A stretch of DNA of 64,000 bases from Nitrosopumilus sp. (GCA_965205675.1 OZ242186.1:928001-992000), one strand, 5' to 3'; positions 42,601 to 61,205 are shown, counted from the stretch's first letter. Translations and numbers: made by a program. The notes: generated by a model not told the origin, from the sequence alone.

Positions 42601-43235
42601 GGTATCTTGGAAATCAATCCAGAGGTGAAGGAATTTTTATACATTTAGATCCAAAAGTCCACGAAGATTCTATGGATGTCTTTAATGGTAATACTTTTGA
42701 TGATCTTAAAATTTGGGAATCTATTCATCAGAAAATTTTGGAGAAAAATACACCTCTTCTTGAAAAATTAAAACAAGAAGAAAGCAATGAACAACAGATT
42801 GATGCATTAGAAAAAGAAAATATGCAAAGCAATCCTCTTTTTGTTTGGTGGCATTCCTTTGCTCATGAACTAATTAATCAATTATCCATTGATTCAGGAT
42901 TTATGGGTGTTTCACTTGGAGAGCGAATTTATTGTATTGAAAAACAAAATGGTACATTTGGTTCTGGAATTTTCATATATGTTTCAAGTCCAGGTGCAGA
43001 TGGAACTCTTGGCGGTCTCACAAGTTTAGTTAATTTGAAAGTACTTCAAGAAATTATTGAAAAAACTTTACAGAAAATTTCTACTTGTTCTAATGATCCT
43101 GTATGTTCTGAAAGGAAAATTAATCTTAAACGTAGAACTGGTGCTGCTTGTCATATTTGTTTGATGAATTCAGAAACATCTTGTGCCTACCAAAACAAGT
43201 TTCTAGATAGAAATTTGATTAGAGGGACTTTATGA
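36690..43235 (+). CDS. drmAB: Fused DISARM DrmA SF2 helicase and DrmB (DUF1998) protein
   Basis: WREFQMAF, FPTGGGKTEAY, RYTLRLLTIQQFQR, QDELHL, YIQSSGRVGR, RDLNHYE (DrmA); RPSQ...YGPG, HSFAHELI, DGTLGGL, CSNDPVC, AACHIC..SETSC..NKFLDR (DrmB). Confidence 0.9.
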   Translation: MIRSHLVKALYQNLLGPLYGPKEIIEEPFLKYELGILNSSYSIDDDIAQNQSSTNAEINPNVAEIKQEIHELNNSENTQGSENLRQEVDTELNLKSGALSLGLSFVLEGAHPKFQICLTWARYVKTVEFGSVPNLFMRKPNFFVTDWIDASKKFDSVKLSNDVNGSIVTHSGVFLHVITKKIEHFDKWTVQIFLENKSEYDVTKSQSEVTRIFQPQIRVKSENELLDLDSSHNQHTTYNDDLLYHNLRTKARGYLCAAVWNDVDPEKNSDGDIGKISWPDSEIVPEKIKSFFTCPDVRTEYLPLYSILQPDQSDKPIFNANTLSQTWKSTDIKSQLSSIEKNYTNWIDDRKKTLDNEVQNKIIEPQLKEKGESNLRDCYSSRDRIKHGIDFLIENKKARAAFCFMNAVMNDKRVNETKNNANPDGADLEWREFQMAFILQSLKGVSGESKDERDLSDVLWFPTGGGKTEAYLGIVIFTLAFRRLSIDENQSNEGGVNVISRYTLRLLTIQQFQRALGAIVAADLRRVRNWLPSEAIEGEEKISDPVLIKKRDDCSFWGNHRFSIGMWIGSGITPKDFAITTGPEGKKFLNCEGALRPQWHKDRRNSDEDSGPDPAQVQNCPVCKNILCIPREQKEYGSPKKLTWIICSPHSLEILQKITKEDIESQNQIALRENPEFELLSKSTDGFSYYRLTMELLPVRKNQVLDRTLIDSWWNSHVKGRLDPDDDRDPLESTSPSMPGYFFLHHGHPRPHDFAIFCTNKSCELNKKIQWFEKLENQVDTLVPKPFQIPDSPHLSISVPISAYVSDEQVYAKCPSFLIATADKFANLPFEPRCASLFGNVDVLHRSFGYGRRIAFTAPLQNRSGNQRIQVPPEKLIDVRGFNPPSLILQDELHLIEGPLGSMVGIYEMAVDVLSNNGSRPKYIASSATIKEAETQVGTIFRRKISIFPPPGIDSFDNYFSKIEEDIPCTAEKFGRLYLGISSTKSTVYLPIKAQSIIMSEIFKIRNNPDNYDLNEIERNDLQSSIDPYWTFVSYFTDLQLLSKFTDYYPENIIENVSNWSNTRVSNSLTRLPNKPIDSGLKLFPLISDRELEVSSISIFCANKIGKIKIALYRSDNPVGKLIYSSEFQDCRLNENIFDLAVGDFPKINKGEKIWVSVISTDPKTIFQLVEITEDSLEDKTFEPTTENFPTDFKELSSIEENFSIKFTLNSSFRLLTDEKNIQLSSETKPEDLTKNLEQLQSKFLIDSLQTSPVFGTGIDVDRLGVMQIMNQPKTNSGYIQSSGRVGRSNPGLVISWLRAGRARDLNHYENFIGYHRMLHKFVEPVTASPFSDEAMRLCLGPILVAILINARNVSGVSVSNRWVLDSGPDRMREHHNDPDVESVKNALSEISKSNTIADYRKMPPERFEHLFNELKGLWHKIAKDLADDKTRPFTYHERRPNIVPENNVVLGTPNHKDLGLDYVYDDTPNSLRQTESSSVFYGPKNDITQIRPSQFTTRYGPGTLISGKKSTWVIPPIQEIVSDLKDTGNFEAPSTSGYKRLYKYEINDSRMKRLLHRFNSDIDWQKLKLFSLPTNSSLTVKEFQPLYRCNQFPRWAVCHNKVHPSRRILAEMTPAQKGIVIKCPACQEHSDIDDEKSTQFFNARYVLACCNGHLDDVNWQYEIHRSGVKCGGNVFEWVSSGSNDDAEIVCLGHWDCNDPNRFIKSTCKSSATYLELKGRSKLGQMDCSAKFAETGLTDPDGCPRPIDNMSQAKMISKTQMSLRMPIVATTMEIQKHKGILYEMYEPLASSIVMGISMLEKINPNWTKNDFLETVLRNNRGSIRGITNQILRQTENASENMFREVIEAVKKFAKTLDNRSESLSEYDSLNEELISLENLTLDNGTGAQISPDDPEPDMRFPIQFETSIDLNFEAMPFGDIKVTQVQTGYTREISPPTLRGSLSQDDTNDGVRIGKVISSNEKFVDENDGRWYLGNQSRGEGIFIHLDPKVHEDSMDVFNGNTFDDLKIWESIHQKILEKNTPLLEKLKQEESNEQQIDALEKENMQSNPLFVWWHSFAHELINQLSIDSGFMGVSLGERIYCIEKQNGTFGSGIFIYVSSPGADGTLGGLTSLVNLKVLQEIIEKTLQKISTCSNDPVCSERKINLKRRTGAACHICLMNSETSCAYQNKFLDRNLIRGTL

Positions 43236-43777
43236 GCGGGTATTCTATTGGAAATATAGAGTCTATTGGAGCTTCTGGTAAGGCATGGGTTGGATTTCAT
43301 GCCGTTGATATTGCTGACCTTTTCTTTTCTGAATTAAAAAATGCAAACAGGTCCATACAAATTTCTTCTTTTTCTACAGGTTACGAAAGCTCTGAAATGG
43401 TGAATTTTTTTAATATTCTTGAGGAACATCTTGAGAATCCACGAATGAAGATTAGTATTATTATCAATGATGATGGAAAAGAAAAAACAATTACTCCATA
43501 TGCGCGAAAAAAATTAGGAAAATTACAAAATGATTTTCCTACACAATTTTTTCCACAATATTTTAAACAGACAAAAGTAAAAAATCTAAATAAAATATTA
43601 CATGCAAAACTTACGGTAATTGATGGAACTACTGCTTTAATTGGCTCTGCTAACATTTCAAAAGGTGCATTAGAATCAAATTATGAAATAATGTTAAAAG
43701 TAACTGGACAAGTAGCAGTTGATTTTTCAAAAATGCTTTCAGAACTATCTAAACAAATAAGGTTGAATACAGCATGA
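43232..43777 (+). CDS. drmC: Phospholipase D-family nuclease (DrmC-like)
   Basis: HAKLTVID...GSANIS...NYE HKD motif; ATGA overlap with drmAB. Confidence 0.85.
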   Translation: MSGYSIGNIESIGASGKAWVGFHAVDIADLFFSELKNANRSIQISSFSTGYESSEMVNFFNILEEHLENPRMKISIIINDDGKEKTITPYARKKLGKLQNDFPTQFFPQYFKQTKVKNLNKILHAKLTVIDGTTALIGSANISKGALESNYEIMLKVTGQVAVDFSKMLSELSKQIRLNTA

Positions 43778-45273
43778 CTCAAAGAAGATTTGATCCTGAA
43801 AAAGCAGATGTTAAACGAGAAAATAATTTCAATATTAATTTATTTGAGAAATTAATTCCCAAGTTTGACACTATCTACAAGAAAGATCTCAAGACTAGTA
43901 TGATTCGTGATTGTGAATCTATAATTCAAAGTGTTGAAAGATTATCATTTAAAATACCTTCTAAAAAAAGAGATGATTCTAATTTGATAAATCCTTGGAC
44001 TATTCAAGGAGAATTTGGAGATTATGCTTACTTTACAATAAAATTACCAATGCCCATTATCCACTATATTCATCCTATATTCAATCGTCTTCATTTTCAA
44101 ATTGGATATTATGAAATGAGAAAGGATGTTGAATTCATTCCATGCTATTTGATGAATTTTAATCATGTTTCTCTTTCAAAAATAGAAAAACCCCGTCATT
44201 CTCCTTTAATTTTTAGTTCAATTAATGATGGATTATACACGAAATTTAGTCATCAAAATGGGAAATACATGAATTTTTCATCATCAAATATAGTACAATT
44301 TGGTGCAACAAATGAAAATATTCAGATTTCAGAAAGAGAAAGTATTGCCAAATGTTTTGAATATGCATATTGGTGTTTACCTGCTCCTAAACGAATAACC
44401 AATTTTTCATCTATTCATAATCTGATTTATCATTCGTATAGTGAAATTAAACGAGGTGGATTTATTCAGTTGAATAAAACTTTATTAAAAATTCTAAAAA
44501 TAAACAGAAAAGAAACTTTGCGAATTTTACCTACAGCAAAAACTATCAACTGTTATTTTGCTGATGTTGTATTGCTTGTAGATGATGGTGAAAAAATATC
44601 TTCTGAAAGACGTCCACTATTGTTAGCGGACAGTATTGTAAATTCATTTAAAGAAGGAGATATGTTTAATGCACTAATTATAACACAAAACGTTTCTACT
44701 CCAAAATATTCCCTTGTAGTTGGAAGTATTGGTAAGGTAATAGAATTGAATAATATTATTCCTCTATTAAGTATTATAATGTGGAAAGAGCTCCAGTATT
44801 TGGAAGAAAATTCTAGTATTACACGTGTAAATAAAATAAGTAAATTAACAAATAATATTCTAAAATTTATTGAACATAATTCTGGAGAAGTAGGAATAAT
44901 GAATCCTTCTTTAGAATGGAATTCAAATATTGGAAAAAAAATTGAAAAAGCGATTAATGATCTTTTCCCATTGTATTTTATTGATGATGATACTATCCAT
45001 CAATTATCTCCAACAATCATTTCTTTTCTTTTAAGTTATGATCCAAAAATTTTACGAAACAGAGATGCATTAACAACAATTATAAAAATTCTTAATTTGA
45101 TTAGCGTTAATTCAGAACAATGGGAAGAATCTACACGTTCACAATTAGAAATATCAAATAACCAAAATAATCATCTTACTTCTTCTACAATAAATCTACT
45201 CCTTGATAATTTACCTATTCTAGTAAACATGATGATGTATTCTAGAATCTTTTCGCAACACTATTTGGACTGA
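43774..45273 (+). CDS. Unknown 499-aa protein in the DISARM-like operon
   Basis: ATGA overlap with drmC; no motif recognised. Confidence 0.8.
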   Translation: MTQRRFDPEKADVKRENNFNINLFEKLIPKFDTIYKKDLKTSMIRDCESIIQSVERLSFKIPSKKRDDSNLINPWTIQGEFGDYAYFTIKLPMPIIHYIHPIFNRLHFQIGYYEMRKDVEFIPCYLMNFNHVSLSKIEKPRHSPLIFSSINDGLYTKFSHQNGKYMNFSSSNIVQFGATNENIQISERESIAKCFEYAYWCLPAPKRITNFSSIHNLIYHSYSEIKRGGFIQLNKTLLKILKINRKETLRILPTAKTINCYFADVVLLVDDGEKISSERRPLLLADSIVNSFKEGDMFNALIITQNVSTPKYSLVVGSIGKVIELNNIIPLLSIIMWKELQYLEENSSITRVNKISKLTNNILKFIEHNSGEVGIMNPSLEWNSNIGKKIEKAINDLFPLYFIDDDTIHQLSPTIISFLLSYDPKILRNRDALTTIIKILNLISVNSEQWEESTRSQLEISNNQNNHLTSSTINLLLDNLPILVNMMMYSRIFSQHYLD

Positions 45274-45288
45274 TGAGGATGTTTATTC

Positions 45289-46026
45289 TTGATTAAAATC
45301 AACAAAGAAAATGATATTACAATACTAACTGCATCAGTTACTGATTTTGCAGATTCTTTAGGATATTGTGAATACAAAATTCCATTATCTATTCAGGGAG
45401 TAAAGCCCAAACCCTCACAATCCTTGATTCTAGGCACAAAAGCTCATCATGCAGAGGAAAAATACGAGCAAGAGCATGTGGAATTAGAGCCTGTATCAGT
45501 TGAGCAAATCGAAGACAAACAGGAAGACATTGAGTTTGCCCGAGAAAACATTCATTCTACTTTGATGATGCCGTTTGAATTTCCATCCGAACATGTTCTA
45601 GTTACCCTCTCAGGAAGGATTGACAAAATTCTAAGAGTTGATGAAACCCTGATAGTTCAGGATGACAAGTTTGCAGGGCGGCCGCAAACCTATGACAACA
45701 AAACACAGCCATATCCAAGCCAGCTGTTGCAAGTATTAGCATATCTTAACTCCAGTTTTTCTGCAAAGAGAAGCAAAGACCCGGAGGATTTCTTTGAGAT
45801 GCCACACACACAAAAGAAATGGCAGATTAGAATCTGTGACAGGAAAACTAGGGAGCCCTATAAAATATTCTCAGAAATTCAAGATGCTTTTTCACTCCAT
45901 TATTTGCATACATCATTAAAAAAATTTGCAACAATATCTCTTGGAATTAAAAATCCTGAACATCATAACAGTGTAAACAAATGCAACGCATGCAATTTGA
46001 AAACTTTATGTGATTATAAAATATAG
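45289..46026 (+). CDS. Cas4-like PD-(D/E)XK nuclease with Fe-S cysteines
   Basis: N-terminal C, GTKAH, SGRID, QDDK, QVLAY, CNAC...LC. Confidence 0.8.
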   Translation: MIKINKENDITILTASVTDFADSLGYCEYKIPLSIQGVKPKPSQSLILGTKAHHAEEKYEQEHVELEPVSVEQIEDKQEDIEFARENIHSTLMMPFEFPSEHVLVTLSGRIDKILRVDETLIVQDDKFAGRPQTYDNKTQPYPSQLLQVLAYLNSSFSAKRSKDPEDFFEMPHTQKKWQIRICDRKTREPYKIFSEIQDAFSLHYLHTSLKKFATISLGIKNPEHHNSVNKCNACNLKTLCDYKI

Positions 46027-46253: not shown

Positions 46254-47643
46254 GTAACTGTCTAGAGTTTTGAAGTAAAATCTCCAAGATATTCTAAAGA
46301 ATAATCATGAAAGTTTAATCCTCGTAATCTGCATGTCTCCTTTATACTCATCAGTATCTTATGAGAATCAGCACCATGAATGGTTCTATGACCGTTTGTA
46401 ATTTTACGAATTATCACATTTGGTCTGATTGCCCTCTCTGCTGTGTTATTGTGTGAATCAGTTCCAGTAATTAGGAATGTAAAAAGCATTTCTCTCTCAC
46501 GTTTCAATCTTTTTACAAACCTGATACAGTTTTTCTCTGTGTATTTTTTTGATATGATGTGATTAATTCTCCTTTCAAGATTCTTTTTTGCATGGATTCT
46601 TTCTGATTCTGATTTTATTTTTGCCACACCATGAGAGTCATAAATTATTTTCTTGAGATTCTTGGCAAATGGTGCAAATTCTGGTCCGGGATTCTTGTGA
46701 TTAATGGTATCATTAACCTCTCTGAGATAATGGATGTGACATTTCTGGTGAGTGCTTCCAACATGGTTCCATGCAGGGTACGAATCACTTGTAATGTTGC
46801 CATCATATCCCTTGAGAATTCTCTTGGGAACATCCATTGAACGTGATTTGTCAATCTCGTAAATTACAGTCCATTTACTCACAAATGCCCACAACCAGTG
46901 GTTCTGGCCATCTACCCTCCAACTTGTCTCATCACCATGTATGTTTAGATCTTCTTTTAACTCCACAATCATTGTATCATATCTGCTCCCAAATGCTTTT
47001 GATACTATTGATACTGCATGATTAATTGCAGATTCTGTAATGTGCAGTGAGAAGAGCATCTGCAAAAGATGAGATATTTTACCATACGATAATCCGATAG
47101 TTTTCAGTGATATGATTAGCACCATGAGCCTAATCCCAAATCTCTCATTGGGTAGCGCAGTGTGAATGTTACCCGAGATTTGTTTTTTGCAGTTTGTGCA
47201 GTATCGTCTAACTATCGTATATTTTGTCACAACTGCTTTTGCAGGAATGATGTCTTCTACTATTCTGGTGTATGAATCAGTTGGTTCTGAGAGTGATTTG
47301 CCACATGTGTTGCACTCTTTTTGGTCAACTGTAATGGCATCATCAATGTGTGCCCGTCTGCTTCTGCTTTTTCTAGGATGTCTTGATGTTTTCTTCTTTT
47401 TTGCAGTTTCAGTCTTGTTTGGTTTTGCTTTGATATTTCTTGCAACAAGTGTAGACACTGTTTGTTTTAGTTCTGCAATTTCTCTGTGTAACTGACGGTT
47501 TTCTTGCTCCAACGAGTGACATCTGTTACGATAATATTCCAGCTCATCATATACTGACAATTGTATATTGTAATTTGTCACTGATCAGAAAAGATATAGA
47601 TAAAAAATATTAAAGAAAGTACTTCAAAACTCTAGACAGTTAC
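46254..47643 (-). mobile_element. IS66-like element, copy 3 (transposase 46262..47581)
   Basis: Same TIRs; no matching TSD. Confidence 0.93.
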
Positions 47644-50010
47644 TATTTTTGTTATTTCTAAAATAATGAATAATTATCTTTACAAAGAAATATTTGAGAA
47701 TTTCAATTGATATTATTGGTTTGTGATTTTGTACATTAGTTTCTTCTGAGATAATCAAATTAGCAATTATCCATGCATTGTACAAAATCAATGAATAGTA
47801 AAAATACAACAATCTTATGGATTGGTTTGAACTGGTGGTTTTTGGTCTGAACCTTCCCACACATGCATAGCCTGTTTCAATCCCCCAACGTTTCTTGTAA
47901 TCAGTTGGAATGTTTTGTATGTTATATGATATTTCTTTTGGTGAAACGTTTGTTGCAAACACAACATACTGATCAATAATATCTGATTTTTTTCTTGCAT
48001 TTTTGTTTGGTAGAATAACTAGATTAAATGATTCTACATGTCCTGATGATGATTTTATTGTGTATGGCGAGATTGACTTTCTATCTCCATTAACGTATTG
48101 TACAATTGCATCTTTGATTCGAGAATTCTTTTTTGCAGGCATTAGAAATTTCAGATTCTTTTGTTTTATTTCTGAAATTGTTCCAGCTGTGAAAAACTCC
48201 CTATCCACTAGCAATAGTTTAATCTTGATTCCATTATTGATGCCATCAGAGAGTAATTTACGCACAAAATCGGCATTTGATTTGTTGTCATACAAAGGAT
48301 AACAACCTAATTGAGCCCTGATTCTTTTTTCAACGCACTGCATGGTGCAGTAACTCTCAAAATGAGTAGTACTGTTTTTTGATTTTGATTTTATTAAAGA
48401 ATGGTTTGGCAATTTGTCATATCTTGGGATTAGATGTTTGTCAATTGCTACAGTAACTGGTTGTTCCAATACTCCCAGTTCTCGTAATTTTGATACTGTA
48501 CTATCTAGTGACTGATGTAATTGAATTTGCATTGTTTTTTGTGATATTTTTGATATGATTTTTCTCAACCATGAAGAGAAGCATTATCTGATTCCATTGC
48601 CAGTCTCTTTAATCCAGATTCAGAATATGAATTTCCCAAACACAATGACATGACAGAATTGTGTGCATCTGCATTGTGGAACCGTGAGTTATTTTTACTA
48701 GAGCATGGAAACAACAAGATATTGTATACTTCCTAACATAAGTTCGTCAACCATCCTCTCGTTGCATATACTTGAGAATGTCTAAATTGAATCGTCTGGT
48801 TCTGTAATATTTGGAGATGTTATTTTTCAGATTACTTAGAGATGGTTGATACTGTGACACCAACAAATTGTATTTTCCTTGCTTCCATACTTCCTCAACT
48901 GCATTGAACTGTGGTGAGCCTTTTGGAAACCAATTCAATAGAACATCATCTGCATTCTCATCAAGATATTTTTGCACTAGTTTTGATCTGTGTTGTGGTG
49001 CTCGGTCTACATAGACTAGAATCTTGCCAAACTTTCTGTGCAATTCCTTTAGATAATCCAAAAAACAGTACTGATCAAATTTTTCATATTGTCTGAATAA
49101 TTGCCTGCCGTCATGAGTCAGTGCACCAAAAATGATTGTTTTTTGATGTGACCCGTTTACTAGAATAATTGGACGGGTTCCTTTCTTTACCCACATCTTT
49201 TTTCTAAATATCGCATCAGCAGTAAAGATGGACTCATCTTGTGCAAGAACTGTAAAGCCTTTTGCTATTTTTGAGGCTATTTGTTCTTTGGAGTTTTTTT
49301 AAACCAGAGTTTTTCCTCAACACTAGCTGAATTTACAAATCTCTTTGCTGCAACCTTTGGAACAAATCCCCATTTGTGTAATAATCTGTACACATGAACC
49401 TCATGATATTTTACACCTGATTTTTGATAAATCAGATTCATCACTTGCTTTGCACTCCAGCCGGATTGTTTTTCTGCAATTTGTAGTTGAATGCTGACTA
49501 GTTTCTTTTTTGGTATACTAGTTGGTCTGCCAGTTCTAGGCAAGTCTTGCAGTCCTGCAATTCCATATTCTGCAAATCTATCTAACCATTTGTATGCCCA
49601 TGAACGTACACGTCCAAGATTCTTTGCAACATGTGATGCAATTTGGTTCTCAAGTAATACTCGCTTTATCAAAAATAGCCTTTCTTTTACCTTGACGTTC
49701 TTTTCATCTTTGTATGCTTGAATTAATTTTTGATTATTCATGGTTTGATGTGTAATGTTTTGATCAATATGGCATTTGGTAAAATAAATCAGATCAATAG
49801 ATCATAAAATTTTGTTAGAGAGTATACATTATTTTAGTGATAATCTCAAATGCTTTAGATAGTATCACGCCTTGGTGTGTCATGGTATCAAATGAAGTAC
49901 AATGCATATCTGATGGAGTGACATACTTCCATCAAGCTTTTTCTATCTGAATAGATTGATTGAATAATTGATAGTTTTTGATCTAAATTGAGTTACTTTC
50001 CCATCTACTG
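47644..50010 (-). mobile_element. ISH3-family element, copy 2, interrupted by IS630 B and truncated by IS66
   Basis: Identity to 23673..24984; left TIR ends at 50010. Confidence 0.88.
48727..49824 (-). mobile_element. IS630-family element B (ORFs 49277..49741 and 48747..49196)
   Basis: QDES, DRAPQH, PKGSPQFNAVE; TA duplication; TTTAAAAAAA slippery site. Confidence 0.9.
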
Positions 50011-50146
50011 AATTACGCAAGATGTCTATAGATTCGGGCATTAAAAGGAATAAAAAAATTACGAACAAGAAAAAACAGGCAAGAAAAATGAGATTTTAAT
50101 CTAGACTAAAAAAATAGAGTAAAGGTCAGATTTTTGTAAATTCGGT

Positions 50147-50443
50147 ATGGAAATAAGAATTATTTTTATATTCAATATGGATTGGGTTGAAACATTATTG
50201 CAAAAATCATGTGATAGAACACTTACAAAAAGCGAAGTTTTGCACAGTCTTTTTCACATGATAGAAGTAAATGAAGGTGTACTAAATCACATTAAAACAA
50301 ACAAAACAGATTTTGGTCCAGAACTAGAAGAATTAAAACAAACCGAAATCAGAGACTTGAATTTTCATTTGAAATACTATAGAAGTTTAGTAAATTATAT
50401 TAATTTAGTACCAAAAAATAAGATTGTTGAACATAGAACATGA
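50147..50443 (+). CDS. Hypothetical protein
   Basis: ORF only. Confidence 0.5.
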   Translation: MEIRIIFIFNMDWVETLLQKSCDRTLTKSEVLHSLFHMIEVNEGVLNHIKTNKTDFGPELEELKQTEIRDLNFHLKYYRSLVNYINLVPKNKIVEHRT

Positions 50444-50461
50444 TCATCAATTATAACATAA

Positions 50462-51010
50462 TTACGATTGTAGTGATTTAAAAAGAGAATCATATTTAGA
50501 TTGCTCTTTAATATTTTGACCATAATTAGTCTCAATTTGATAGTTTGAGGATTTTTCATCAAAAAGTTTTTGTAATTTTTCTACTTCTTTATGAATCATT
50601 TTTCCAGAATCTTCTTTGGCAAATTGTTTACGTTGATCTTCATTCTGACCTCGGGTTGGAAAAGATTTATTGTAAAATTTTTGTTGCAAATAAGATATAT
50701 TTTTACGTTTTATTAGCTCGGCTAGATCAAAATGTCCTTGCTCATGATTAAGCAAAGAATCATTGGCCTCAGATGTTCGTACCCAAGAAAGCAATGGATG
50801 AAATTCTACAAAAAGAGAAATATCTTCAATCAAGAAAACAATTTGTTCATTAACTCTATCTGAATTCACAGTCCAAGTAAAACTATATTTGATGATGCTG
50901 TGGCTGTCTTCAAATACAGCAGGGTTGAATTCTGCTTGAAAGTCACTCCATTTAAGAAAAATACCAGACCTCCATTCCAAGAGGGTTTTTTTACTCATAA
51001 CAGATAGCAT
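50462..51010 (-). CDS. DUF922-like putative zinc metalloprotease
   Basis: LKWSDF, SWV, LLNHEQGHFDLAE (HExxH). Confidence 0.75.
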   Translation of the reverse strand: MLSVMSKKTLLEWRSGIFLKWSDFQAEFNPAVFEDSHSIIKYSFTWTVNSDRVNEQIVFLIEDISLFVEFHPLLSWVRTSEANDSLLNHEQGHFDLAELIKRKNISYLQQKFYNKSFPTRGQNEDQRKQFAKEDSGKMIHKEVEKLQKLFDEKSSNYQIETNYGQNIKEQSKYDSLFKSLQS

Positions 51011-51378
51011 TTTTACGATAATAAAATTATTTTTTATTTTTACTAATTAACATGAGACATGGGCATAATTAATTCTAATTTTTGAGTTAATTCTCAAATT
51101 ATTCAAATCAAAAAAGCTAAAGGTCTTATCATGTTTTGTTCATTGGAATGTCAAAACAAATGAAAATCCCTAGGCAAGATTCTATCAGGATCATTTCTTA
51201 TTGGTGTGTTATATTTGGTGGGGATGTTGTCTTTGCATGAGAAAGTATTCAGAGCCTACAGGCATAATTCACAGCAAAACCACTTGTGAACGTGACAATT
51301 TGTTTTCTTTGGACTGGCAGTATTACTGTTACAGTTTGGACAAAAGTTAATTGCCTTTTCAGATCTTTTTCCTGAATA

Positions 51379-52474
51379 TACCCCAGATCATAAGTCTTTT
51401 CAATTTACTGTTCTTGCAAAATACTGATACATATTCAAATTAAATTTGTGGGTTCTAAAATATTCCATAACTGTATGCCTCATTTCATGAATAGATTCAT
51501 AAAATTCTGATTCAACATTAACATGTTTGCACTGTCTCCAAATCTCTTCAATCATACTCAAATGCGGAGAACCTCTTGGAAGATATGCCAGTTCAACATC
51601 TTCGTTTTTACGCAGATATTCTTTTACATCATTAGCTTTGTGTTGTGACGCTCTATCGACGATAACAAATATTTTCCCGAATTTTTTACGAGCTGCCTCC
51701 AAATAATCCATAAATGCAATGGAGTTAAATTTTTCATACGATCTAAAAAAACTTTGATTATCATCAGTCATCATTCCATAAACCAAAAATCTTTGGTGCG
51801 ATCCTCTCCAACGTACAATCATTCGTTGGTGTACATCTGTCCAGTATTTTTTACCAAGACGTACATCGTCTACAAATACAGACTCGTCTTGGATGAATAC
51901 TATAAAACCTTTCTTTTTTGCCTTTTTTATGCGTGAAATGATGCGGTTTTTCCACTTGCGGCATGTATCCTTGGATGCTGCTCGCACATGTAGTTTTTGT
52001 GGAACCTTTGGTTTTAGATTCCATTTGTGCATCAAACGACGCACGTGAGTGATATGATATGTAATGCGTGTTCTGTAAAATATGAATTGTATCAGTTTTT
52101 TTGGAGTCATTCCATCTGAAATTCTCTTAAATGTACGCTCTATTTTTTGTAATTTTTTGTGTGCGATTAATGGCGGACGGCCAGAACGAGGGAGGTCCTC
52201 CAGACCCTCCAATCCATATTTTTCAAATGAATCAAGGCAGTTCCTTACAGAATTGTATGTACAAAATATTTGGCTTGCAGTTTCAGCAATTGTAGATTTG
52301 TTGATCTTAATTATACACATTGCATGCAGTCTTTCCTTTTTCTTACCGTACTTTTCTTTTTTGTAGGCCTGGAGTAACTCGTCATTTGTGATGTCCATGA
52401 AATTATTTCTAACTACTGATCAAAAAGTATTGCTATTTGTTTTGAAAAATTGCAAAGAATTATGCTCCGAGGTA
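51379..52474 (-). mobile_element. IS630-family element C, copy 1 (transposase 51400..52398)
   Basis: QDES, DRASQH, PRGSPHLSMIE; TA flanks. Confidence 0.9.
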
Positions 52475-53628
52475 TATGTACTGATATCAGTTGCAAATAT
52501 AGAGTCCAAAGTATCAGTAGAGCAAACAATAGGTAGGATACTGCGATTATCAAAACAAAAAGAAAAGAAAAACCAAGAATTAAACTGCTCTTATGTGTAT
52601 ACATCATCACGAATCTTTGAGGAATCAGCTAAAGCATTAGAGAAAGGATTACTACAAAACGGATACTCTAAAAAAGATTTCAAGCAATTAACTGAAAAAA
52701 TACAAAGCAGGGAAATCTACAAGAGAGCAATTACTGATAAGGATATAAAAATTCCATGTATTGGAATAAATGATAAAAAACTACGAAGAATAAACTTTCA
52801 TGATGATTTTTTGGGTTCTGACTTTACATTAAGCAAACAAAAACCTCCTGAGAAATATCTTCTATACTTTGATGAAAATAAAACAAAGAAAGTTGACATA
52901 GAATATGGAGATAAGTTGAGTAGTTCTGTGCAAACATCACTTGATGTTACATATCAAAACAAGGATTTTGATGAAACTCGCCTGTTAAATTGGCTTGATA
53001 AAAAAATAAAACGCATAGAATATTCTCAAACAGACAAAAGAGAATATTTAGCAAAAATCATTAATCATGCGACAAAAAAAGAAAATATCTCACTATCTGA
53101 ATTATCAATTAATTGCTACACTTTACGTAACATCATAAACAGACAGATTGACAAACTAGAGCAGACAAAAGCAGAAAAAACATTCCTACATCTTGAAGAA
53201 TCAAATAAACTGATAATGGATAAAATACAATATTCCCCAGAACAAACACTTGAGATTAGCAATGTTTCTGAGGAACCATTTAAACTGCATCTCTTTGAGC
53301 GGGCAGGAATAATGAATAGAGAAGAATTAAATCTTGCCTTGAAAATTGATGGACTAAAAAACATAAAGTGGTGGTATAGGAATATGGATAAAAATGATTT
53401 CTACATACAAGGATGGCAAAAATTCAGATTCAATCCTGATTTTATAATAAAGACTAAATCTGGTAAATATGTCATTACAGAGTACAAAGGGGAAAATTTA
53501 CTTAGCAATGATGATACAAAGTACAAGGAAAAACTAGGTAAAAAGTGTACACTGTTCAATCTTAGTGTCATTTCTCGATTTTCACCCGAGTGTTCAATCA
53601 GGGTGACGGGTGTTAAGTTAGGGTGCTA

Positions 53629-53758
53629 TAGCGAGAAGCATATGTTCATGAACTATTTTCATGGTATTTCAGATCGTTTATTCGTATTTACCTAGGTAAA
53701 ATCATCTAATCTCTAGTTTTTTGATGATTTTTAGTTCACGAACTTTATCTTTTCGCTA
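53629..53758. mobile_element. 130-bp MITE, TA-flanked
   Basis: Ends TAGCGAGAAG / CTTTTCGCTA; second copy at 29750..30860. Confidence 0.85.
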
Positions 53759-54024
53759 TAGTCATTAACTGTAAATTCAAACAGTCCTTTTTTACCCGTG
53801 ATTATTTTAAGTTCATCATCTTCTGTAAATGAATGCTTTTCATATAACTGGGTCAACATAATGCAATTTTTGTTATTTACTCTCATATTGTAAATTTTCC
53901 CCATGAATTTTACCTTAAAAATTTCATCTTTTGGTGGAAATTCTTCTCTAATTATTTTTGGTAATCCTACATACTTGTATTTAGCTTCACTTGCAGACAA
54001 GCTCTTTACAAAATTAACAACCAT
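53731..54024 (-). CDS. Small B3/EcoRII-N-like DNA-binding domain protein; C-terminus supplied by the MITE
   Basis: FVKSLSASEAKYKYVGLP pattern; start overlaps the REase stop. Confidence 0.5.
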   Translation of the reverse strand: MVVNFVKSLSASEAKYKYVGLPKIIREEFPPKDEIFKVKFMGKIYNMRVNNKNCIMLTQLYEKHSFTEDDELKIITGKKGLFEFTVNDYSEKIKFVN

Positions 54025-54737
54025 TACCCCATCACCTTTTCTCTGTTTGAGAAACATAAATCAAGATTGTCTGGAAATACTCTAAACCCAGTTCCATGAT
54101 CATGAGGTCTACCATCTGGATATTGTCCAATTCTTATGTCAACTAGAATTTTACCTTCTTTGAGTAATTTTATAAAATTATCAAAATCAAATCCGTTCAT
54201 CAGCCATGCCTCATTGTAATGAAATTCTTCATTTTTGCCCCTACCTTTAGAATCAGCTTTGACATACAAAAGGTTCTGTGGATATTTGCGATTAAATTGA
54301 GTTTCAAGTTCTTGTTTTTCCCAATATGGGGTTTCCATGTCGCCATAATCACAATGATCAATTTCTATTCTGGAATCATTGATAGTTAGAATAAATCCAT
54401 CATTTCCGTAAAGAGTATTTCTTGAAACTGCATCAAAGGTTGTATGTAATTTCTTTCTACCATTATCTGCTTTACGACCAAACCGTTCAAGCAGTTTGAC
54501 ATTTATTTTTTCAGGCATTGGTGCTTTTGTGAATAGTGTAAGCATACTTGGCGAACCTTTTCTTGCTGATTTTAATTCTGTAAAATGTCCGTTAGGTCCT
54601 GGAATATTATTTTCCTCAATGCCCAACAAATCCTCTAATGTTTTGCCAATACCTGTGTTTCCAGATCTATGGGTTGTTACAAATCCTGATTCACTGACTT
54701 TTTTTAGATCTACAAGAAGCTCATCATATCTTTTCAC
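54024..54737 (-). CDS. MvaI/BcnI-family restriction endonuclease
   Basis: GNTGIGKTLEDLLGIEENN, ELKS, LTLFTKAP, HDHGTGFR. Confidence 0.9.
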   Translation of the reverse strand: MKRYDELLVDLKKVSESGFVTTHRSGNTGIGKTLEDLLGIEENNIPGPNGHFTELKSARKGSPSMLTLFTKAPMPEKINVKLLERFGRKADNGRKKLHTTFDAVSRNTLYGNDGFILTINDSRIEIDHCDYGDMETPYWEKQELETQFNRKYPQNLLYVKADSKGRGKNEEFHYNEAWLMNGFDFDNFIKLLKEGKILVDIRIGQYPDGRPHDHGTGFRVFPDNLDLCFSNREKVMG

Positions 54738-54745
54738 AAATCAAC

Positions 54746-56065
54746 TCAATATTTCATAATAATAACACTTTCTCGGGTCATGGTTTTGCCTGTCTCTTTT
54801 GTGATGTTCTCAGGTGCATTCTTTGAGGGCATTGATTTGTTTGGTATGTTTCTCTGAATTATCTTATCCACCTTGAACCCATATTTCATCCCTAATTCAA
54901 TGGTGATTAAGTCAGTTGGTATGACTACACGCCTTACTGTCCTGTTTGCCACAACAAAACAGCAATAACTTTTCTTAGGAACTAGATTCTGAGATATTTC
55001 ATCTAGACACTTGTCTAAATCATAAAAGAATGAATATACTGCCTCTGTTCTGCATGGTTTCTTATTTTTTGTCATTGCAATGTCATTTTTTCTAACTTTA
55101 TCTAGTGTCGTGTTTAGTATTCCAGAACCCAAATCTCCACCTATTCTGTATTGACCACCCAAGCCAACAGAATCAACAGTTAGTGCTTTTTCTTCTTGTA
55201 ATTCTAACCAAAGGCTAGAATGCTTTGAGAATTGACCATAAGCTACAGTGGTTCCATGATCACCATAAGGCGGTGAGGTTACTACAAGATGAACTTTTTT
55301 GTCTTGTAGTATGTTGTTGTTAATTTTTTTAAAATTACCTGTAATGTCTCTTGAATCTCCCAACAATATGTGAGCTTTACCTTTAGGCATTGCATCAACC
55401 ATCTCAGTCATTTTGATTATGTTGTTTTCTGCAATCTGTTTGAACATATCCATTGGTTGTGGGTTAAATTCTATCTTGTCTGAATCTGAAATTCTATGAA
55501 TTTTCCAAGCACCGTTACGCTGATAGCTTGATTTCCTAACCGTCAAAGAGAAACATATTTTGAAAAAATCCCTTACGTCTTCATCACGAATCTTAAAGAC
55601 ATTGTGTTTTAGAGTAGTGAGTATTTTTATTGTATCTGGTTTGTACCAATTTTCAACATCTAGTTTGTTTGGAAGACATTCTAAATGATATTCTCGGTTA
55701 AGATAATCTCTAGCTGAATTTGAAAGTATTCTTGTCAGTGTTGGATTCAAGTCTTTGTGTATTGGAGTTGTTTTTACCTTTGAAAGTAATGTGGCAAAGG
55801 GGTTTATGTCAATTCCAATAGTTTGGTTTCCGTGCATCATTGCTTCAAGCAATACGCCACCTGAACCCATAAACGGGTCAAGAACAACATCTGTTTTATC
55901 TTTGGAATATTTTTCAATTACTTGTTTGGCAATTTCTGGATGCATCCTTGCGGGGTACAAATGCAAGGCATGAGTATATTTTTTGGTGCTTACATCTGCA
56001 AACGTCCATTCCATTTTTTGCAATTGTGATTTGTACAGAAATTCAGTATTTGTAATTTGTGCCAT
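54746..56065 (-). CDS. DNA N4-cytosine (amino) methyltransferase
   Basis: HLYPARM, DPFMGSG, DINP, VTSPPY. Confidence 0.9.
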   Translation of the reverse strand: MAQITNTEFLYKSQLQKMEWTFADVSTKKYTHALHLYPARMHPEIAKQVIEKYSKDKTDVVLDPFMGSGGVLLEAMMHGNQTIGIDINPFATLLSKVKTTPIHKDLNPTLTRILSNSARDYLNREYHLECLPNKLDVENWYKPDTIKILTTLKHNVFKIRDEDVRDFFKICFSLTVRKSSYQRNGAWKIHRISDSDKIEFNPQPMDMFKQIAENNIIKMTEMVDAMPKGKAHILLGDSRDITGNFKKINNNILQDKKVHLVVTSPPYGDHGTTVAYGQFSKHSSLWLELQEEKALTVDSVGLGGQYRIGGDLGSGILNTTLDKVRKNDIAMTKNKKPCRTEAVYSFFYDLDKCLDEISQNLVPKKSYCCFVVANRTVRRVVIPTDLITIELGMKYGFKVDKIIQRNIPNKSMPSKNAPENITKETGKTMTRESVIIMKY

Positions 56066-56072
56066 CAGTCGA

Positions 56073-56246
56073 TCACTTTTTTATCGGCTTGACATTGATT
56101 ATAAGATTACTTTTCTCAGCTTTAATCTCCCATTCCAACTGATCCTTTTCTTTTAGATCAAAATGGGTTATGATGCTTTGAGGTATTGTTGTTCTCAAGC
56201 TCATAGAAGTAGTGGTAGCTTTGTTAATCGATGTCTTTTCTCCCAT
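56073..56246 (-). CDS. AbrB/MazE/SpoVT-family regulator
   Basis: SLRTTIPQSIITHFDLKEKDQLEW. Confidence 0.8.
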   Translation of the reverse strand: MGEKTSINKATTTSMSLRTTIPQSIITHFDLKEKDQLEWEIKAEKSNLIINVKPIKK

Positions 56247-56331
56247 AGGTAACAAGATAAGGCATTGTCTATTATAGTTACCTATTACCTATAACGTTAC
56301 CTTTATATCAATGGGTAACAGTATAGGTAAC
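56245..56331. promoter_or_regulatory. Divergent promoter with six (AT)AGGTAAC-like boxes
   Basis: Motifs at 56245, 56277, 56285, 56296, 56313 and 56323, in both orientations. Confidence 0.6.
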
Positions 56332-57666
56332 ATGAATAGAAAACAAAAAGCAAATCAAATATTCTCAAAAGCAAATAAGATTAGAAAAATTTCAAAGAAT
56401 CATTACGCTGTAGATTCTCAAAACTCAGACAAATCATACAATGTTAGAAAATTACCAAAATCGGATGTATGGACTTGTGAGTGCAAGGATTTTCATTTCA
56501 GATTACGAAAACTAGATGATAAACATTGTAAGCACATTAAATCATGTATCCTATTACAAGATAGTATAAACACAGAAAACAAAATAGAGCAAGTATCACA
56601 ACCCAAAGTTTGTCCTAAATGTCAATCATCATGTATTGTAAAAAATGGATTTAGAAAGCTAAAGAATGGAGGACAGAGACAAAAGCACAGGTGCAACCAA
56701 TGCAAGTACAGATTCATTTTAGGTGAAAATGGATTTTCCAAAGTTTCATCTGATCCTAAAATAATCTCTGAATCATTGAATCTGGTTATGAGTGGAATGT
56801 CATATCGTAACATTGCACGACACATTGAGACAGTACACCAAATCAAGATTAGTCATGTATCTGTGAATAACTGGATTAGTAAATACACACAACTAATCAA
56901 AGATTATGTTGATACTCTAAACCCTGAGTTGTCTGATGTGTGGAGCTTGGATGAAATGTATCTCAATGTCAAAAATACAAAAAAGACTGGAAAGGGATTT
57001 CATGATTGGTTATGGAGTATCATTGATCCTAAAACTAGATTTCTTATTGCTACAGAAGTATCAAAGAAAAGGGAAATTTCTGATGCAAGAAAGATTATTT
57101 CAAGTGGCAAGAAGATAATATCTAAAAATCCAAATTATGTATTAACTGACTGTCTAAATTCATATCAAGAAGCAATAAGAAAAGAGTTTGAAAATAAGAC
57201 TGCACATATCAAGACAAAGTCCCTCAAAGAAGGATTTGTGAACAGACCTATAGAACGGTATCATAATGAAATTAGAGAAAGACTCAAAGCTAGACGTGGA
57301 TTAGGCAATGATGAATCTGCACAGATGTTTTCAGAGTTGTTAAAGATAAATCATAACTTTGTCAAGCCACATCAAGGGTTAGATGGACAAACACCAGCTC
57401 AAGCTGCAAATATTGATCTAAATCTAGGTGATAACAAATATCTAGATTTGATAAAACTGTCTGGAACTAAAGTGAACTTTGTAAACAATTTAGGAAAGAG
57501 AATTAAAAAAGTTACAATAGTTAATGAGGGTGATTCCATTAAAGTTACTCCTACAGGATGGATTGATAAAAAAATATGGAGGGAGATAAACGATATTTTG
57601 AAACTTCATAAATTTAGTTGGTTATCAAATGGAAAAGATAGCTGTTGGCTGAAGATAATTTCCTGA
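56311..57666 (+). CDS. IS6-family DDE transposase with N-terminal SWIM finger and zinc ribbon
   Basis: WTCECKDF...CKHI (SWIM), CPKC...CNQC, WSLDEM, LTDCLNSY, IERYH, TPAQAA. Confidence 0.88.
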   Translation: MGNSIGNMNRKQKANQIFSKANKIRKISKNHYAVDSQNSDKSYNVRKLPKSDVWTCECKDFHFRLRKLDDKHCKHIKSCILLQDSINTENKIEQVSQPKVCPKCQSSCIVKNGFRKLKNGGQRQKHRCNQCKYRFILGENGFSKVSSDPKIISESLNLVMSGMSYRNIARHIETVHQIKISHVSVNNWISKYTQLIKDYVDTLNPELSDVWSLDEMYLNVKNTKKTGKGFHDWLWSIIDPKTRFLIATEVSKKREISDARKIISSGKKIISKNPNYVLTDCLNSYQEAIRKEFENKTAHIKTKSLKEGFVNRPIERYHNEIRERLKARRGLGNDESAQMFSELLKINHNFVKPHQGLDGQTPAQAANIDLNLGDNKYLDLIKLSGTKVNFVNNLGKRIKKVTIVNEGDSIKVTPTGWIDKKIWREINDILKLHKFSWLSNGKDSCWLKIIS

Positions 57667-57840
57667 TTTTCTCATTTCTTGCACTTTGTTAATTGCGTTT
57701 AGTGTATGATTTGTTATGACCTCAATGATTTCATTTTGAGAAACATCATAATCCATTTCATCATCTACAAACATGAATAATATTTCATCTAATTTTTCTT
57801 CATATTGGTTTTTAGTTTCTGTCTTCCTATTTTTTGACAT
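57625..57840 (-). CDS. Small hypothetical protein inside the transposon
   Basis: ORF only. Confidence 0.4.
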   Translation of the reverse strand: MSKNRKTETKNQYEEKLDEILFMFVDDEMDYDVSQNEIIEVITNHTLNAINKVQEMRKSGNYLQPTAIFSI

Positions 57841-58102
57841 ACTCTTGATGTATCTCAGTATCTAATATGTTGTAACTACGATCACCCTAACTTAACACCC
57901 GTCACCCTGATTGAACACTCGGGTGAAAATCGAGAAATGACACTAAGATTGAACAGTGTAAAAAAGTGGGCAGAATTGGCAGGAGGTAATTATTTCTTTT
58001 ATCTCGTTAACAAAAACAGTGTCGAACAATTTATGACAGATATTGGAAAATTATGATTTGTAAATAGTTTAGTGCATTAATATCGTAATTGTTCTAATCC
58101 AT

Positions 58103-58188
58103 CACACCAATTTAACACTCATCACCCTAATTGAACACTCAGTTGAAAATCGTGAAATTGATAAAATGATACTAAGATTGAACAGTGG
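58103..58188 (+). repeat. Diverged third copy of the transposon TIR
   Basis: ...CACCCTAATTGAACACTC...CTAAGATTGAACAGTGGA, similar to 57883-57960. Confidence 0.8.
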
Positions 58189-58204
58189 ACTATTTTACAT
58201 AAAT

Positions 58205-59332: not shown

Positions 59333-59963
59333 ATGTCAGAGTGTGGTCATGAGAAAATCATTTTACAATTACAAGAGGAGATACGACAACTCAAAGCAAT
59401 CATAGAGAAATTAGTAGAATCAAACAAAGATTTGCAAAAAAGATTATCATACTATGAAAATCCACACTCACCACCATCAAAAAATTCACTTGAATGGAGA
59501 AAACAGAAACAAGATGCAAAGAAAAACAGAGATTCTGATTCTGGCAAATCAAAACGTGGTGGCATACCAGGTCACAAGGGCACAACACAGAAATTCACCC
59601 CAACCAGTACCATACATCACAAATGTTTAGAATGTCCCAAATGTGGAAGTGAAGATATCCTTCAAATCAAGACTGCCAAAAGAATAATGGTTGAAATCCC
59701 TCCACCAACTCAATACATTGCAACTGAGCATGTCTTGTATCAATACAATTGTAAGAACAGCTCTGATAGTTTCAAGACAGATGGAAATCTTCCACCATGT
59801 GGATGCTTTGATGCTTCTGCAATACGTGAGGCAGTCTCATTATTCTCAAAGAGAATGCCATACGATACCATTAGAGTAACTCTTCAAGAAAGATATGGAT
59901 TGAAAATTAGTTGCACTACAGTACAATCTATTCTTCGCACTGGCAGTATTATGTTAGAACCAT
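59333..59963 (+). pseudogene. Second IS66-type transposase N-terminal part, interrupted by IS3 and ISH3
   Basis: Coiled coil, NPHSPPS, RGGIPGHKG, CPKC. Confidence 0.8.
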
Positions 59964-61205
59964 TGGAGTGGACTCCTGTTTTTAGTACCACTTTTTGCAT
60001 AATCTTACATACAGTCTGATTCATTTATGTTTTCATCTCCCATAACTCCATGAATTCATCAGGAGTAAGGTATCCTAACGCTGAATGAATCCTGGAACCA
60101 TTGTAATCGATTCGTGCTTTCTCTAGAGCAACTTCGGCTTCCTGATAGTTTGCAAACTCGTACCTCCACAAGTATTCCTTCTTGAGTGTCTTGTGGAATG
60201 ATTCGACATGTCCGTTTTGTTCTGGCGTGTGGTGCCAGATGAATTCGTGTCTTATTCCAAGTAGAACAACTGCTTTTCTGAAATCTCGGCTGTTGTATTG
60301 CGAACCGTTGTCAGTTCTGAGAATCAGTTTTGTGCAATCAGGCTTTGCAGTAGCTACTGCATTAATGATGCTGTTAATTGCAGTGCTCTTTGGAGCTGCC
60401 ACATCAAATGAATGCCAAATCCATTTCCTGCTAAATGCATCAATCACGTTAAAGCAGTAGCACCATCTGTCAACCCCACACCAGACATATGTGATGTCTG
60501 TCTGCCACAACTGGTTTGGTGCATCAGGCTTGAATAATGTTCTGGCAGATTTGATGATGTCATTTTTGGTCTTTTTAGGCCCAATCCAGCCCAATTTGTG
60601 AAATATTCTTCTGATTTGTTTTCTGTTTACAGGCTTGTTCAGTTCCCTTGAGACTTGGGATGCCATGCGTCTGGTTCCATAAGTTGGCCTTTGTTTTCCA
60701 ATCTTTTGAACTACATCAGTTACTGCAGGATCTGTCTGAATCCTTCTTGGTGACTTTGAGTAATACCATTTGGATTTTGAGACTCCAATTAATAACAATG
60801 ACTTGTTCAAACTGATGTGTTTGTTCAGTTGATTCACTGCAGTCATCTTTTCTGGTTCTCCAACGTTTTTTTTAAAATGTCATTGGCAATTGTGATCTCG
60901 CCGATTAGTTTTTTGAGGGAATCATTTTCCTTTTGCAGATTCTTGCAGACATCTCCGTTTGGTGTGCCATTTAATGATGCCTTGCCACCTTCTACAAATC
61001 GTTCCCTCCATTGGTAGAATGTCTGTGGATGAATATTGTACTTTCTGCACAACTCTGCAGTTGCAATGTTTGTGTTTAGTGACTCTAAAACCCCTCTTGA
61101 CTTTTCTGCTGATGTGAATTTGCTCTTTACCATGAGGGTAAGCCTCCCAAGTTATCTGAAAAGTGTATGTATGCTACTGGTCCTACTCTAGAGGGGACCA
61201 GACCA
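59964..61205 (-). mobile_element. IS3-family element (orfA 60843..61133, orfB 60025..60846)
   Basis: WQTDITY, TDNGSQY, NGHVESFH; TG...CA ends; TSD CCAT; ATGA coupling. Confidence 0.9.

Follow-up and report, generated by a model that had tools for sequence, protein, structure and literature searches.

A probable single-transposase, IS6-like unit transposon with restriction-modification cargo, one of a large family in Nitrosopumilaceae-type archaea

IS26 directs its insertion beside resident copies of itself and moves cargo as units of one insertion sequence (IS) plus adjacent DNA or as composite transposons. Tn7-like transposons have ends with several transposase-binding repeats, depend on the multi-protein TnsABC(D/E) machinery, generate 5-bp target-site duplications (TSDs) and target attachment sites. 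We analysed a 64,000-nucleotide stretch of Nitrosopumilus sp. DNA (GCA_965205675.1 OZ242186.1:928001-992000; hereafter the window, from whose first letter positions are counted), in which a 4,413-bp transposon at 53548-57960 carries a restriction-modification (R-M) system. This is very probably an autonomous single-transposase unit transposon, or 'transporter IS', of an IS6-like lineage. It belongs to a large family in Nitrosopumilaceae-type archaea, in which the backbone of ends and transposase gene is conserved and the cargo, mostly R-M genes, is exchanged. The copy in the window landed in a decayed Res gene within a defence/IS island, at a site that is still polymorphic in same-study material. 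Like IS26, the family shows abutting or nested elements (loci L054 and L047), and a solo end lies 133 bp from the insertion in the window; unlike in IS26, the cargo lies within one pair of ends. With Tn7-like transposons, as the passages of PMC8649781 portray them, it shares a conserved transposition backbone and variable, defence-rich cargo, and it differs from them in its one IS6-like transposase and 8-bp TSD.

The norm in the IS6 family is an element of 0.7-0.9 kb (up to 1.76 kb) with 15-20-bp ends, and the passages of two reviews used here place a zinc-finger clade in Clostridia and list no Thaumarchaeota (PMC7986276, PMC6807381). The ISCpe7 group of Clostridia (clade VII of Harmer & Hall 2019; clade h of Varani et al. 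2021) likewise has an N-terminal zinc domain, a helix-turn-helix (HTH), an IS6-type DDE domain and an 8-bp TSD, and in the same source its members are single-gene ISs of 1.2-1.35 kb with 12-32-bp terminal inverted repeats (TIRs) and transposases of 340-353 amino acids (aa) (PMC6807381). The element in the window, in contrast, measures 4.4 kb and has 78-bp three-repeat ends, extra SWIM and C-terminal domains, cargo and an archaeal host. ISDsp3, the single IS6-family 'tIS' with a passenger gene (PMC7986276), resembles it in enclosing a non-transposition gene within its ends, in its longer TIRs (28/36) and in its 8-bp TSD; ISDsp3 is 1,456 bp long, with one hypothetical passenger, a single copy in one bacterium and no intact zinc finger (PMC6807381), whereas we find a whole family with multi-gene defence cargo. 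Furuta, Abe & Kobayashi (2010) reported R-M genes enclosed by inverted repeats of 26-65 bp, with an 8-bp TSD and, in a sister genome, an empty site, and one such unit in Neisseria pairs a transposase-like (COG3677) gene with type IIG + S cargo (PMC2853133). In the passages of that paper, these units are isolated bacterial cases, with no archaeal case past the filter and a transposase thought to be inactivated, and no family, end architecture or cargo exchange is described (PMC2853133). A survey of the thaumarchaeal mobilome presents IS-like transposons as one- or two-gene elements; the whole word 'IS6' is absent from its text, and R-M-carrying transposons go unmentioned in the passages drawn on here (PMC6563490). 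We found no published description of the family in the full-text literature, a scope that excludes ISfinder and subscription-only papers; the family is widespread and apparently undescribed.

Using a repeat search of the window, we found the left and right arms of the element complementary at 78/78 nt (100%), and a scripted comparison found the two flanking copies of AAAAAGTG to match at 8/8 positions, in agreement with the perfect 78-bp TIRs and the 8-bp TSD claimed in a preliminary description of this DNA. The internal repeats of about 20 bp that it had also reported correspond to three direct 18-nt sub-repeats in each 78-bp end, read by eye at TIR positions 3-20, 41-58 and 61-78 (CACTGTTCAATCTTAGTG, GAGTGTTCAATCAGGGTG and GGGTGTTAAGTTAGGGTG; 13/18 and 14/18 matches, counted by eye), and a script probing with the tip repeat recovered the sub-repeat at position 41 in both ends. 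Two words taken from the TIR match three times each in the window, against 0.00 expected (100 shuffles), and the third match of both is the diverged solo end listed in Table 1. The arms are free of ORFs (open reading frames), and the element contains one transposase gene with four or five other ORFs. We rejected a composite transposon, since a single transposase gene and the absence of any ORF in the 78-bp arms mean that there are no two IS copies.

Table 1. Features of the transposon and its insertion site, in window coordinates.
Feature	Position	Strand	Remarks
Target gene: type III-like Res, C-terminal relic	52472-58046	+	Split by the transposon at 53547/57969
TSD, left copy	53540-53547		AAAAAGTG, 8 bp
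Left TIR	53548-53625	+	78 bp; tip TACACTGTTCAA
MITE-like repeat, ~135 bp, 30-nt imperfect inverted arms	53626-53761		Secondary insertion, directly inside the left TIR
Small cargo gene, ~86 aa in homologues	53734-54024	-	Listed ORF 53731-54057; likely start M12
Type II endonuclease, MvaI/BcnI family, 237 aa	54024-54737	-	Pfam PF15515, E 9.3e-48
DNA methyltransferase, 439 aa, N6/N4 family	54746-56065	-	Pfam N6_N4_Mtase; SPPY catalytic motif
AbrB/MazE/SpoVT-like gene, 60 aa	56073-56255	-	Head of R-M operon; putative controller
Divergent intergenic region	56246-56331		Three exact TAGGTAAC copies, two +, one -
Transposase, 444 aa from M8	56332-57666	+	ORF opens 56311; IS6-type DDE
71-aa ORF, small right-hand variable slot	57625-57840	-	Putative; between transposase stop and right arm
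Right TIR	57883-57960	-	78 bp
TSD, right copy	57961-57968		AAAAAGTG, 8 bp
Solo diverged end of a related element	58101-58196	-	About 80-84% identical to the TIR

Homologues of the transposase begin at the eighth codon of its ORF, giving a protein of 444 aa in which a SWIM motif (CxC..CxH), a zinc ribbon, an HTH, an IS6-type DDE domain and a C-terminal domain of about 70 aa follow one another. In an alignment of 18 family members, the residues of the SWIM signature CxC...CxH (C49, C51, C66 and H68) are invariant in 18/18. The same holds for C97, C121 and C124, which together with C94 (conserved in at least 90%) make up the zinc ribbon, and for the DDE triad of D207, D273 and E308; R315, seven residues past the glutamate, is invariant as well. 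The nearest homologue is 91% identical. The C-terminal residues are present only in what we call below the close clade, and this domain has no usable match in Atlas. A search of PDB sequences with the transposase returned nothing usable, and a single-protein query of viral contigs gave no match.

The DDE region matches Pfam PF13610 (DDE_Tnp_IS240) at 52.1 bits against a gathering score of 27 (E 1e-13, residues 210-352), and the best NCBIfam model is transpos_IS6 (NF033587), with an E value of 2.7e-31 over profile positions 7-202 of 202. The score of 108.8 bits is below the NCBIfam IS6 cut-off of 125, so 'IS6' denotes a resemblance here and not a certified membership; of the SWIM-IS6 transposase in the preliminary description, the SWIM ligands and the IS6 model as best match stand, with family membership uncertified. 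The second NCBIfam model is IS1, at 72 bits, and the IS1/IS1595 zinc domain (NF050000) matches residues 101-136 at E 8e-4, below its cut-off. Among plasmid records searched by tblastn, the nearest annotated genes are labelled 'IS6-like element ISCpe7 family transposase' (26% identity, residues 89-364), and none of 48 records covers 80% of the query. Two other assignments were rejected. An IS256/Mutator-like transposase would have to fit the IS256 model, which scores 29.5 bits against a cut-off of 150; Transposase_mut gives weak matches only, in two distant-clade proteins. Tn3-family elements have a TnpA of about 1000 aa, a resolvase, inverted repeats of about 38 bp and a 5-bp TSD, and the element in the window has a 444-aa IS6-like transposase, an 8-bp TSD and no resolvase or integrase domain in any ORF.

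The resemblance to IS6 can also be read as a shared DDE fold in an otherwise separate IS family, a view to which we give somewhat less than even weight. For it speak the score under the IS6 cut-off together with 72 bits for the IS1 model, the 26% identity to ISCpe7-type proteins, the extra SWIM and C-terminal domains, multi-repeat ends of 48-103 nt and close-clade tips that start with TA and not GG; Harmer & Hall, in the passages used, argue that archaeal and zinc-finger groups should leave IS6 (PMC6807381). Against it, the IS6 model outscores all others by far and is matched from end to end, the TSD measures 8 bp, a CTGTT..AA end motif is present and the distant-clade tips begin with GG. IS6 tips have been characterised by a 'G dinucleotide at the tips and cTGTt and caaa motifs' (PMC7986276, in the passage concerned); the tip here has CTGTTCAA, which resembles the 'cTGTt ... 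caaa' motif, and starts with TA, not GG. The PF13610 domain, the DDE triad with K/R seven residues after the glutamate and the 8-bp TSD are IS6 features, and an N-terminal zinc-binding extension ahead of the HTH-DDE part is present as in the ISCpe7-group clade. Three further IS6 features fail, namely the NCBIfam cut-off, short TIRs (78 bp here, 48-103 bp in relatives) and a small single-gene size (4,413 bp here), and for this reason we file the element as IS6-like and not as IS6: an IS6-like transporter IS or unit transposon that may merit family rank.

We examined the insertion site for evidence of movement. Deleting 53548-57968 by script restores an open frame (...KEKLGKKWAELAGGNYFFYLVNK...*) that ends at 58046 and is colinear across the junction with an uninterrupted 772-aa ResIII-type orthologue of another genome (L064, 44% identity), of which it represents residues 381-743. 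The Res relic is truncated upstream by an IS630-like element, and neither its N-terminal half nor a partner Mod gene was found anywhere in the genome; the gene was already a C-terminal relic before the transposon arrived. The earlier proposal that removing the element restores the host Res frame thus holds for the frame, which is that of a relic. Three public sequencing runs, all of one study, match the stretch, in the form of assembled contigs that show both forms of the site and not their proportions. A 1,279-nt contig of run X1 joins 53539 to 57961 with zero mismatches, skipping 4,421 nt with 8 nt shared, which is the exact empty site, and a contig of run X3 of the same study shows the occupied site, with the left flank continuing into the TIR. 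The two contigs make the site polymorphic, occupied and empty, in same-study material; with the uninterrupted Res orthologue, they also answer the question of whether an empty site exists. Runs X4 and X5, which bear the same species label, have essentially no cover of the stretch and are uninformative either way. Run X1 has in addition a loose end at 57961, where the same TIR tip is joined to a different flank; this genome contains 0 matches to an 18-nt motif of the second flank, so the loose end is unreadable as a new insertion site of this strain, and the X1 sample includes other DNA in which a copy has this end. All ORFs of the element are open and its transposase is full length. Together with the polymorphism, the element seems to have moved very recently.

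The solo end offers a different history for the site. It lies 133 bp downstream of the insertion and 55 bp past the Res stop, with its tip pointing away from the Res relic, and it is possible, if in our judgement not quite an even bet, that the transposon lies within a sister element, now decayed, that used to carry the Res gene. The Res/Mod-carrying elements L010 and L047 have an end placed past the Res stop in a matching geometry. On the other hand, no family transposase or TIR lies within 19 kb of the nearest intact Res orthologue (L064), and the missing N-terminal half of Res and the missing Mod gene count against the idea as well.

We then asked how far the element extends beyond the window. 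The genome, a single 2.01-Mb contig, contains a second element at G000:C1:1827040-1832921 (L010:5041-10922), which is 5,882 bp long with 72-nt TIRs (92%), a transposase 80% identical to the one in the window, type III-like ResIII + Mod cargo and no TSD. About 1.4 kb ahead of the window lies a distant-clade element (G000:C1:923390-926562; L082:7991-11163). Its 49-nt TIRs are perfect, its TSD is TGGTCTTC, it carries type II methyltransferase and endonuclease cargo, and its transposase frame is apparently shortened (268-aa ORF). Tip-motif matches point to further relics in this genome (10, against 0 for a reversed control). In a protein collection, the transposase has 268 relatives at E <=0.001, and the best 120 of these 268 are 55-92% identical; the sources named among the matches listed are Nitrosopumilus, Nitrosotalea and Nitrososphaera. 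Of 301 genomes sampled from the same taxonomic family, 105 have a transposase match (E <=1e-20), as do 20 of 27 genera; this tally includes seven unpublished genomes, on which no locus-level claim rests. Sampling across the phylum gave a match in 27 of 56 genomes belonging to that taxonomic family, compared with 9 of 344 outside it.

The relatives fall into a close clade, with full-length transposases 45-91% identical to the one in the window, and a more numerous distant clade, whose transposases are 29-39% identical, about 375-400 aa long and without the C-terminal domain. The close-clade set comprises 21 transposase copies, this one and 20 in 19 fetched loci, of which 13 lie inside TIR pairs of 55-103 nt with spans of 2.4-7.6 kb, in 7 genomes (L054b reaches the limit of the fetched DNA with its right edge). 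The distant-clade set comprises 23 matches, 22 in 18 loci and one from the close-clade loci; enclosing repeat pairs occur in 10 of the 18 loci, and nine delimited elements and one other make 10 elements with 48-71-nt TIRs. The 23 elements delimited overall span 2.4-7.6 kb and have TIRs of 48-103 nt, so that homologous transposases do not lack long TIRs and cargo, a finding that would have counted against such a family. By script, an exact 8-bp TSD was found in 14 of the 23 (6/13 in the close clade, 8/10 in the distant clade). Close-clade tips read TACACTGTTCAA or variants of it, and distant-clade tips read GGTTCTGT.AA, starting GG. Across 18 elements, 19 internal copies of the respective tip motif were counted, against summed shuffle means of about 4.6, and each delimited unit has exactly one family transposase, adjoining one end.

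Several loci contain more than one set of ends. In L054 (5971-20000), two elements stand in tandem with a third end 8 bp away, and one element lies between two other tips, separated from them by nothing but the 8-bp duplication. A second repeat pair surrounds the element in L047 (5479-11917), and L081 (6239-13973) is another tandem, abutting or nested case. That family elements often abut or nest suggests insertion beside resident ends. A search by eye for flank exchange between L044 and L045, inverted copies in genome G038, gave no match.

Cargo differs widely among these elements. In the close clade, R-M genes of types II, IIG+S and III are present in 11 of 13 elements (L045 being counted as a copy of L044, with the same ORF lengths), which bears out the previously proposed family of single-transposase defence-cargo transposons. 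They comprise the MvaI-type system in the window; a HaeIII-type endonuclease with a D12 methyltransferase, once intact and once decayed; N6_Mtase/Eco57I-type fusions with an S subunit in five elements, two of them decayed copies in one genome, and one of the five also bearing a TIR-domain gene and a TBP gene; ResIII + Mod in two elements; and a methyltransferase with an unknown partner in one. The two remaining close-clade elements have an HTH gene and unknown genes only. In the distant clade, R-M genes are present in 3 of 10 elements; an AbiV-type HEPN gene, a ClpP/SDH-type protease, a proteasome-like gene and a nested integrase-type IS occur in one element each, and three elements hold unknown genes only. 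An element without R-M genes at L052:1633-7510, with an exact TSD, has a Csa3/ArsR-like HTH gene and 444-, 274- and 178-aa proteins that belong to no family; this cargo is possibly an undescribed defence system.

When we compared the element in the window with seven relatives at the DNA level, the transposase ORF was similar in 7/7, from start codon to stop codon, and the TIRs were similar in the two closest (L043 and L060). The only other shared DNA was with L046, in segments of the small gene and the methyltransferase, and L046 alone shares cargo pieces (the methyltransferase, at 43% aa identity, and the small gene), a finding that draws in part on a tally with unpublished genomes among those counted. 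L043 has a transposase 89% identical to the one in the window and an unrelated R-M system. Since DNA homology between elements is limited to the transposase gene and the ends, the cargo is exchanged as a module. Two slots vary, a large one from the left end to the transposase gene and a small one from the transposase gene to the right end. In the element in the window, the small slot has a 71-aa ORF with zero matches in Pfam, NCBIfam and PADLOC or among the proteins of 12 other elements. A GIY-YIG nuclease of 121 aa occupies the small slot of L043 (11832-12197) and of L046 (1720-2082), the two proteins being 82% identical; it could be an accessory transposition nuclease or plain cargo.

The pattern of conservation bears on what mobilises the unit. 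Furuta et al. (2010), in the passages available, leave the mobiliser of bacterial inverted-repeat-flanked R-M units open (PMC2853133), and the genome studied here has relatives able to act in trans. One could therefore picture a unit mobilised as a composite, in trans like a MITE (miniature inverted-repeat transposable element) or by the R-M system, with the transposase gene as a passenger. We regard this as highly improbable: TIR sequence varies along with the transposase across the family and cargo does not, each unit has one family transposase beside one end, the arms are ORF-free, and the 8-bp TSD fits IS6.

The R-M operon runs opposite to the transposase gene. The endonuclease is closest among PDB sequences to R.MvaI (E 7.6e-32), followed by R.BcnI (E 5.5e-13), in line with its earlier assignment to the MvaI/BcnI family and with the Pfam match in Table 1. 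It has 2,259 homologues, the top one 88% identical, and with its full length and this near homologue it looks intact. E54 and K56 are invariant in 15/15 aligned sequences; the position of the R.MvaI 'PD' aspartate holds Asn or Asp across the subfamily. The methyltransferase, whose gene adjoins that of the endonuclease 8 bp upstream, matches PADLOC MTase_II (PDLC03322) at E 1.1e-114. The system probably recognises a CCWGG-like site and makes m4C, as suggested only by the SPPY motif and the kinship to MvaI; the enzyme reported earlier as an m4C methyltransferase matches the N6/N4 family. The proposed AbrB regulator matches AbrB/MazE-like proteins at E 5.6e-5, and its 23.5 bits lie slightly below the Pfam cut-off of 24.7. 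The R-M cargo would serve host defence, and it probably also stabilises the element by penalising its loss through post-segregational killing.

The small gene downstream has 63 homologues, 64-99 aa long, whose first residue corresponds to its twelfth codon. They adjoin the same methyltransferase family or MvaI-like endonucleases at 6 of the 14 loci checked, and many are on contigs equal in length to those of endonuclease matches; on these grounds we assign the gene to the R-M module. It has no match in Pfam, NCBIfam, PADLOC or PDB sequences, and an EcoRII-N cluster in Atlas (score 0.85) is a weak lead only, so the 'B3-like' label of the preliminary description is unconfirmed; we retain the product as a putative DNA-binding protein. 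Searching genomes with the EcoRII-N family yielded no hit, even in the controls, and is uninformative. The MITE-like repeat is not part of the transposon backbone, and it provides the last nine residues and the stop codon of the small gene. Elsewhere in the genome it occurs as 14 near-full-length copies (77-97% identity), a further split copy and 13 partial matches. The copy that is 97% identical to the one in the element suggests that the transposon was in this gene pool before it reached its present site. Within the window, the repeat is also seen at about 29748-29828 and 30800-30862, as one copy split by about 1 kb.

Between the AbrB-like gene and the transposase gene, TAGGTAAC has three exact matches within 86 bp, and these are the only three in the 64-kb window, against 0.86 expected window-wide. 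Because the only three copies cluster there, it is plausible that R-M operon and transposase gene share an operator.

We next weighed the reading of the element as an autonomous, recently mobile transposon. A number of findings count against it. The empty-site contig shows polymorphism but gives no direction of change, since it could stem from insertion, from precise loss or from a mixed population of strains. Transposition itself was not observed, and the genome has one copy only of the exact element, where a purely replicative move within the genome would leave two. In the wider family, 8 of the 21 close-clade transposase copies have no detectable TIR pair in the fetched DNA at the thresholds used, and 9 of the 23 delimited elements have no TSD. 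The 'PD' position of the endonuclease is Asn, as in most of the 15 aligned homologues, and restriction activity is assumed; sub-repeat binding, operator function and addiction are likewise functions that we infer.

A rival reading is that the element is a dead or domesticated relic and the polymorphism a product of strain mixture, or of loss by recombination or slippage between the 8-bp repeats. The single copy would fit such a relic, as would empty-site evidence that comes from one contig of one run of one study, in which contig depths give no allele shares, and the TIR tip on a foreign flank in run X1, which places related DNA from another source in that sample. We judge the relic unlikely. 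The TIRs are identical at 78/78, the TSD is intact, no ORF is interrupted and the catalytic residues are retained. Over 1,279 nt, the empty-site contig does not differ in its flanks from the window, and clean TSDs are present in 14 of the 23 family elements. An autonomous IS6-like unit transposon is the better account of these data.

For such a transposon, we propose that the transposase binds the three 18-nt sub-repeats of each 78-bp end, as happens at multi-site ends of other transposons, and pairs the ends, and that it would then cleave the tips and join them to target DNA with an 8-bp stagger. The interval between the left end and the transposase gene would act as the cargo slot, filled here by a full MvaI-type type II R-M operon, and the AbrB-like regulator, acting on the three TAGGTAAC sites, may couple R-M and transposase expression. 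The route may be IS26-like copy-in with cointegrates or cut-and-paste. By analogy, IS6 kinship suggests copy-in with cointegrates; given the single copy in the genome, the better fit would be arrival from another replicon or cell, or cut-and-paste.

The surroundings of the insertion contain further mobile and possibly defensive genes. At 36690-46026, co-directional genes encode proteins of 2,181 aa, 181 aa (with an HKD, or PLD-like, motif), 499 aa and 245 aa (Cys-rich), a set that looks like a large defence-type operon beside the IS cluster. That cluster, at 46262-52398 and 59333-60846, is a dense group of other IS-type genes, whose families were assigned by reading translations only: an IS66-like-looking gene, a DDE IS that is also found beside the second element, two IS630-like genes (one split) and an integrase-type gene at 60025-60846.

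A wider reading would make these elements a distinct SWIM/zinc-ribbon/DDE IS family with 50-100-bp ends of 2-3 binding repeats, which shuttles R-M and other defence genes among ammonia-oxidising archaea, builds defence islands by inserting into or next to resident copies, in the manner of IS26, and is active today. Taken as a whole, we hold this reading only tentatively and think it rather unlikely. Ammonia-oxidising archaea rank with the most abundant microbes of oceans and soils, and a common vehicle appears to move whole defence systems between their genomes. The family helps to explain the patchy distribution of R-M systems, and it extends the IS6 story, dominated by antibiotic-resistance composites, to single-unit archaeal carriers of defence genes. 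It is a natural system for the study of multi-repeat transposon ends and of SWIM fingers in an IS6-type enzyme, and a transposon tool for organisms so far without genetics might be developed from it. If the element is active today, genetics in this group, for which there is no genetic system, would gain its first usable native transposon.

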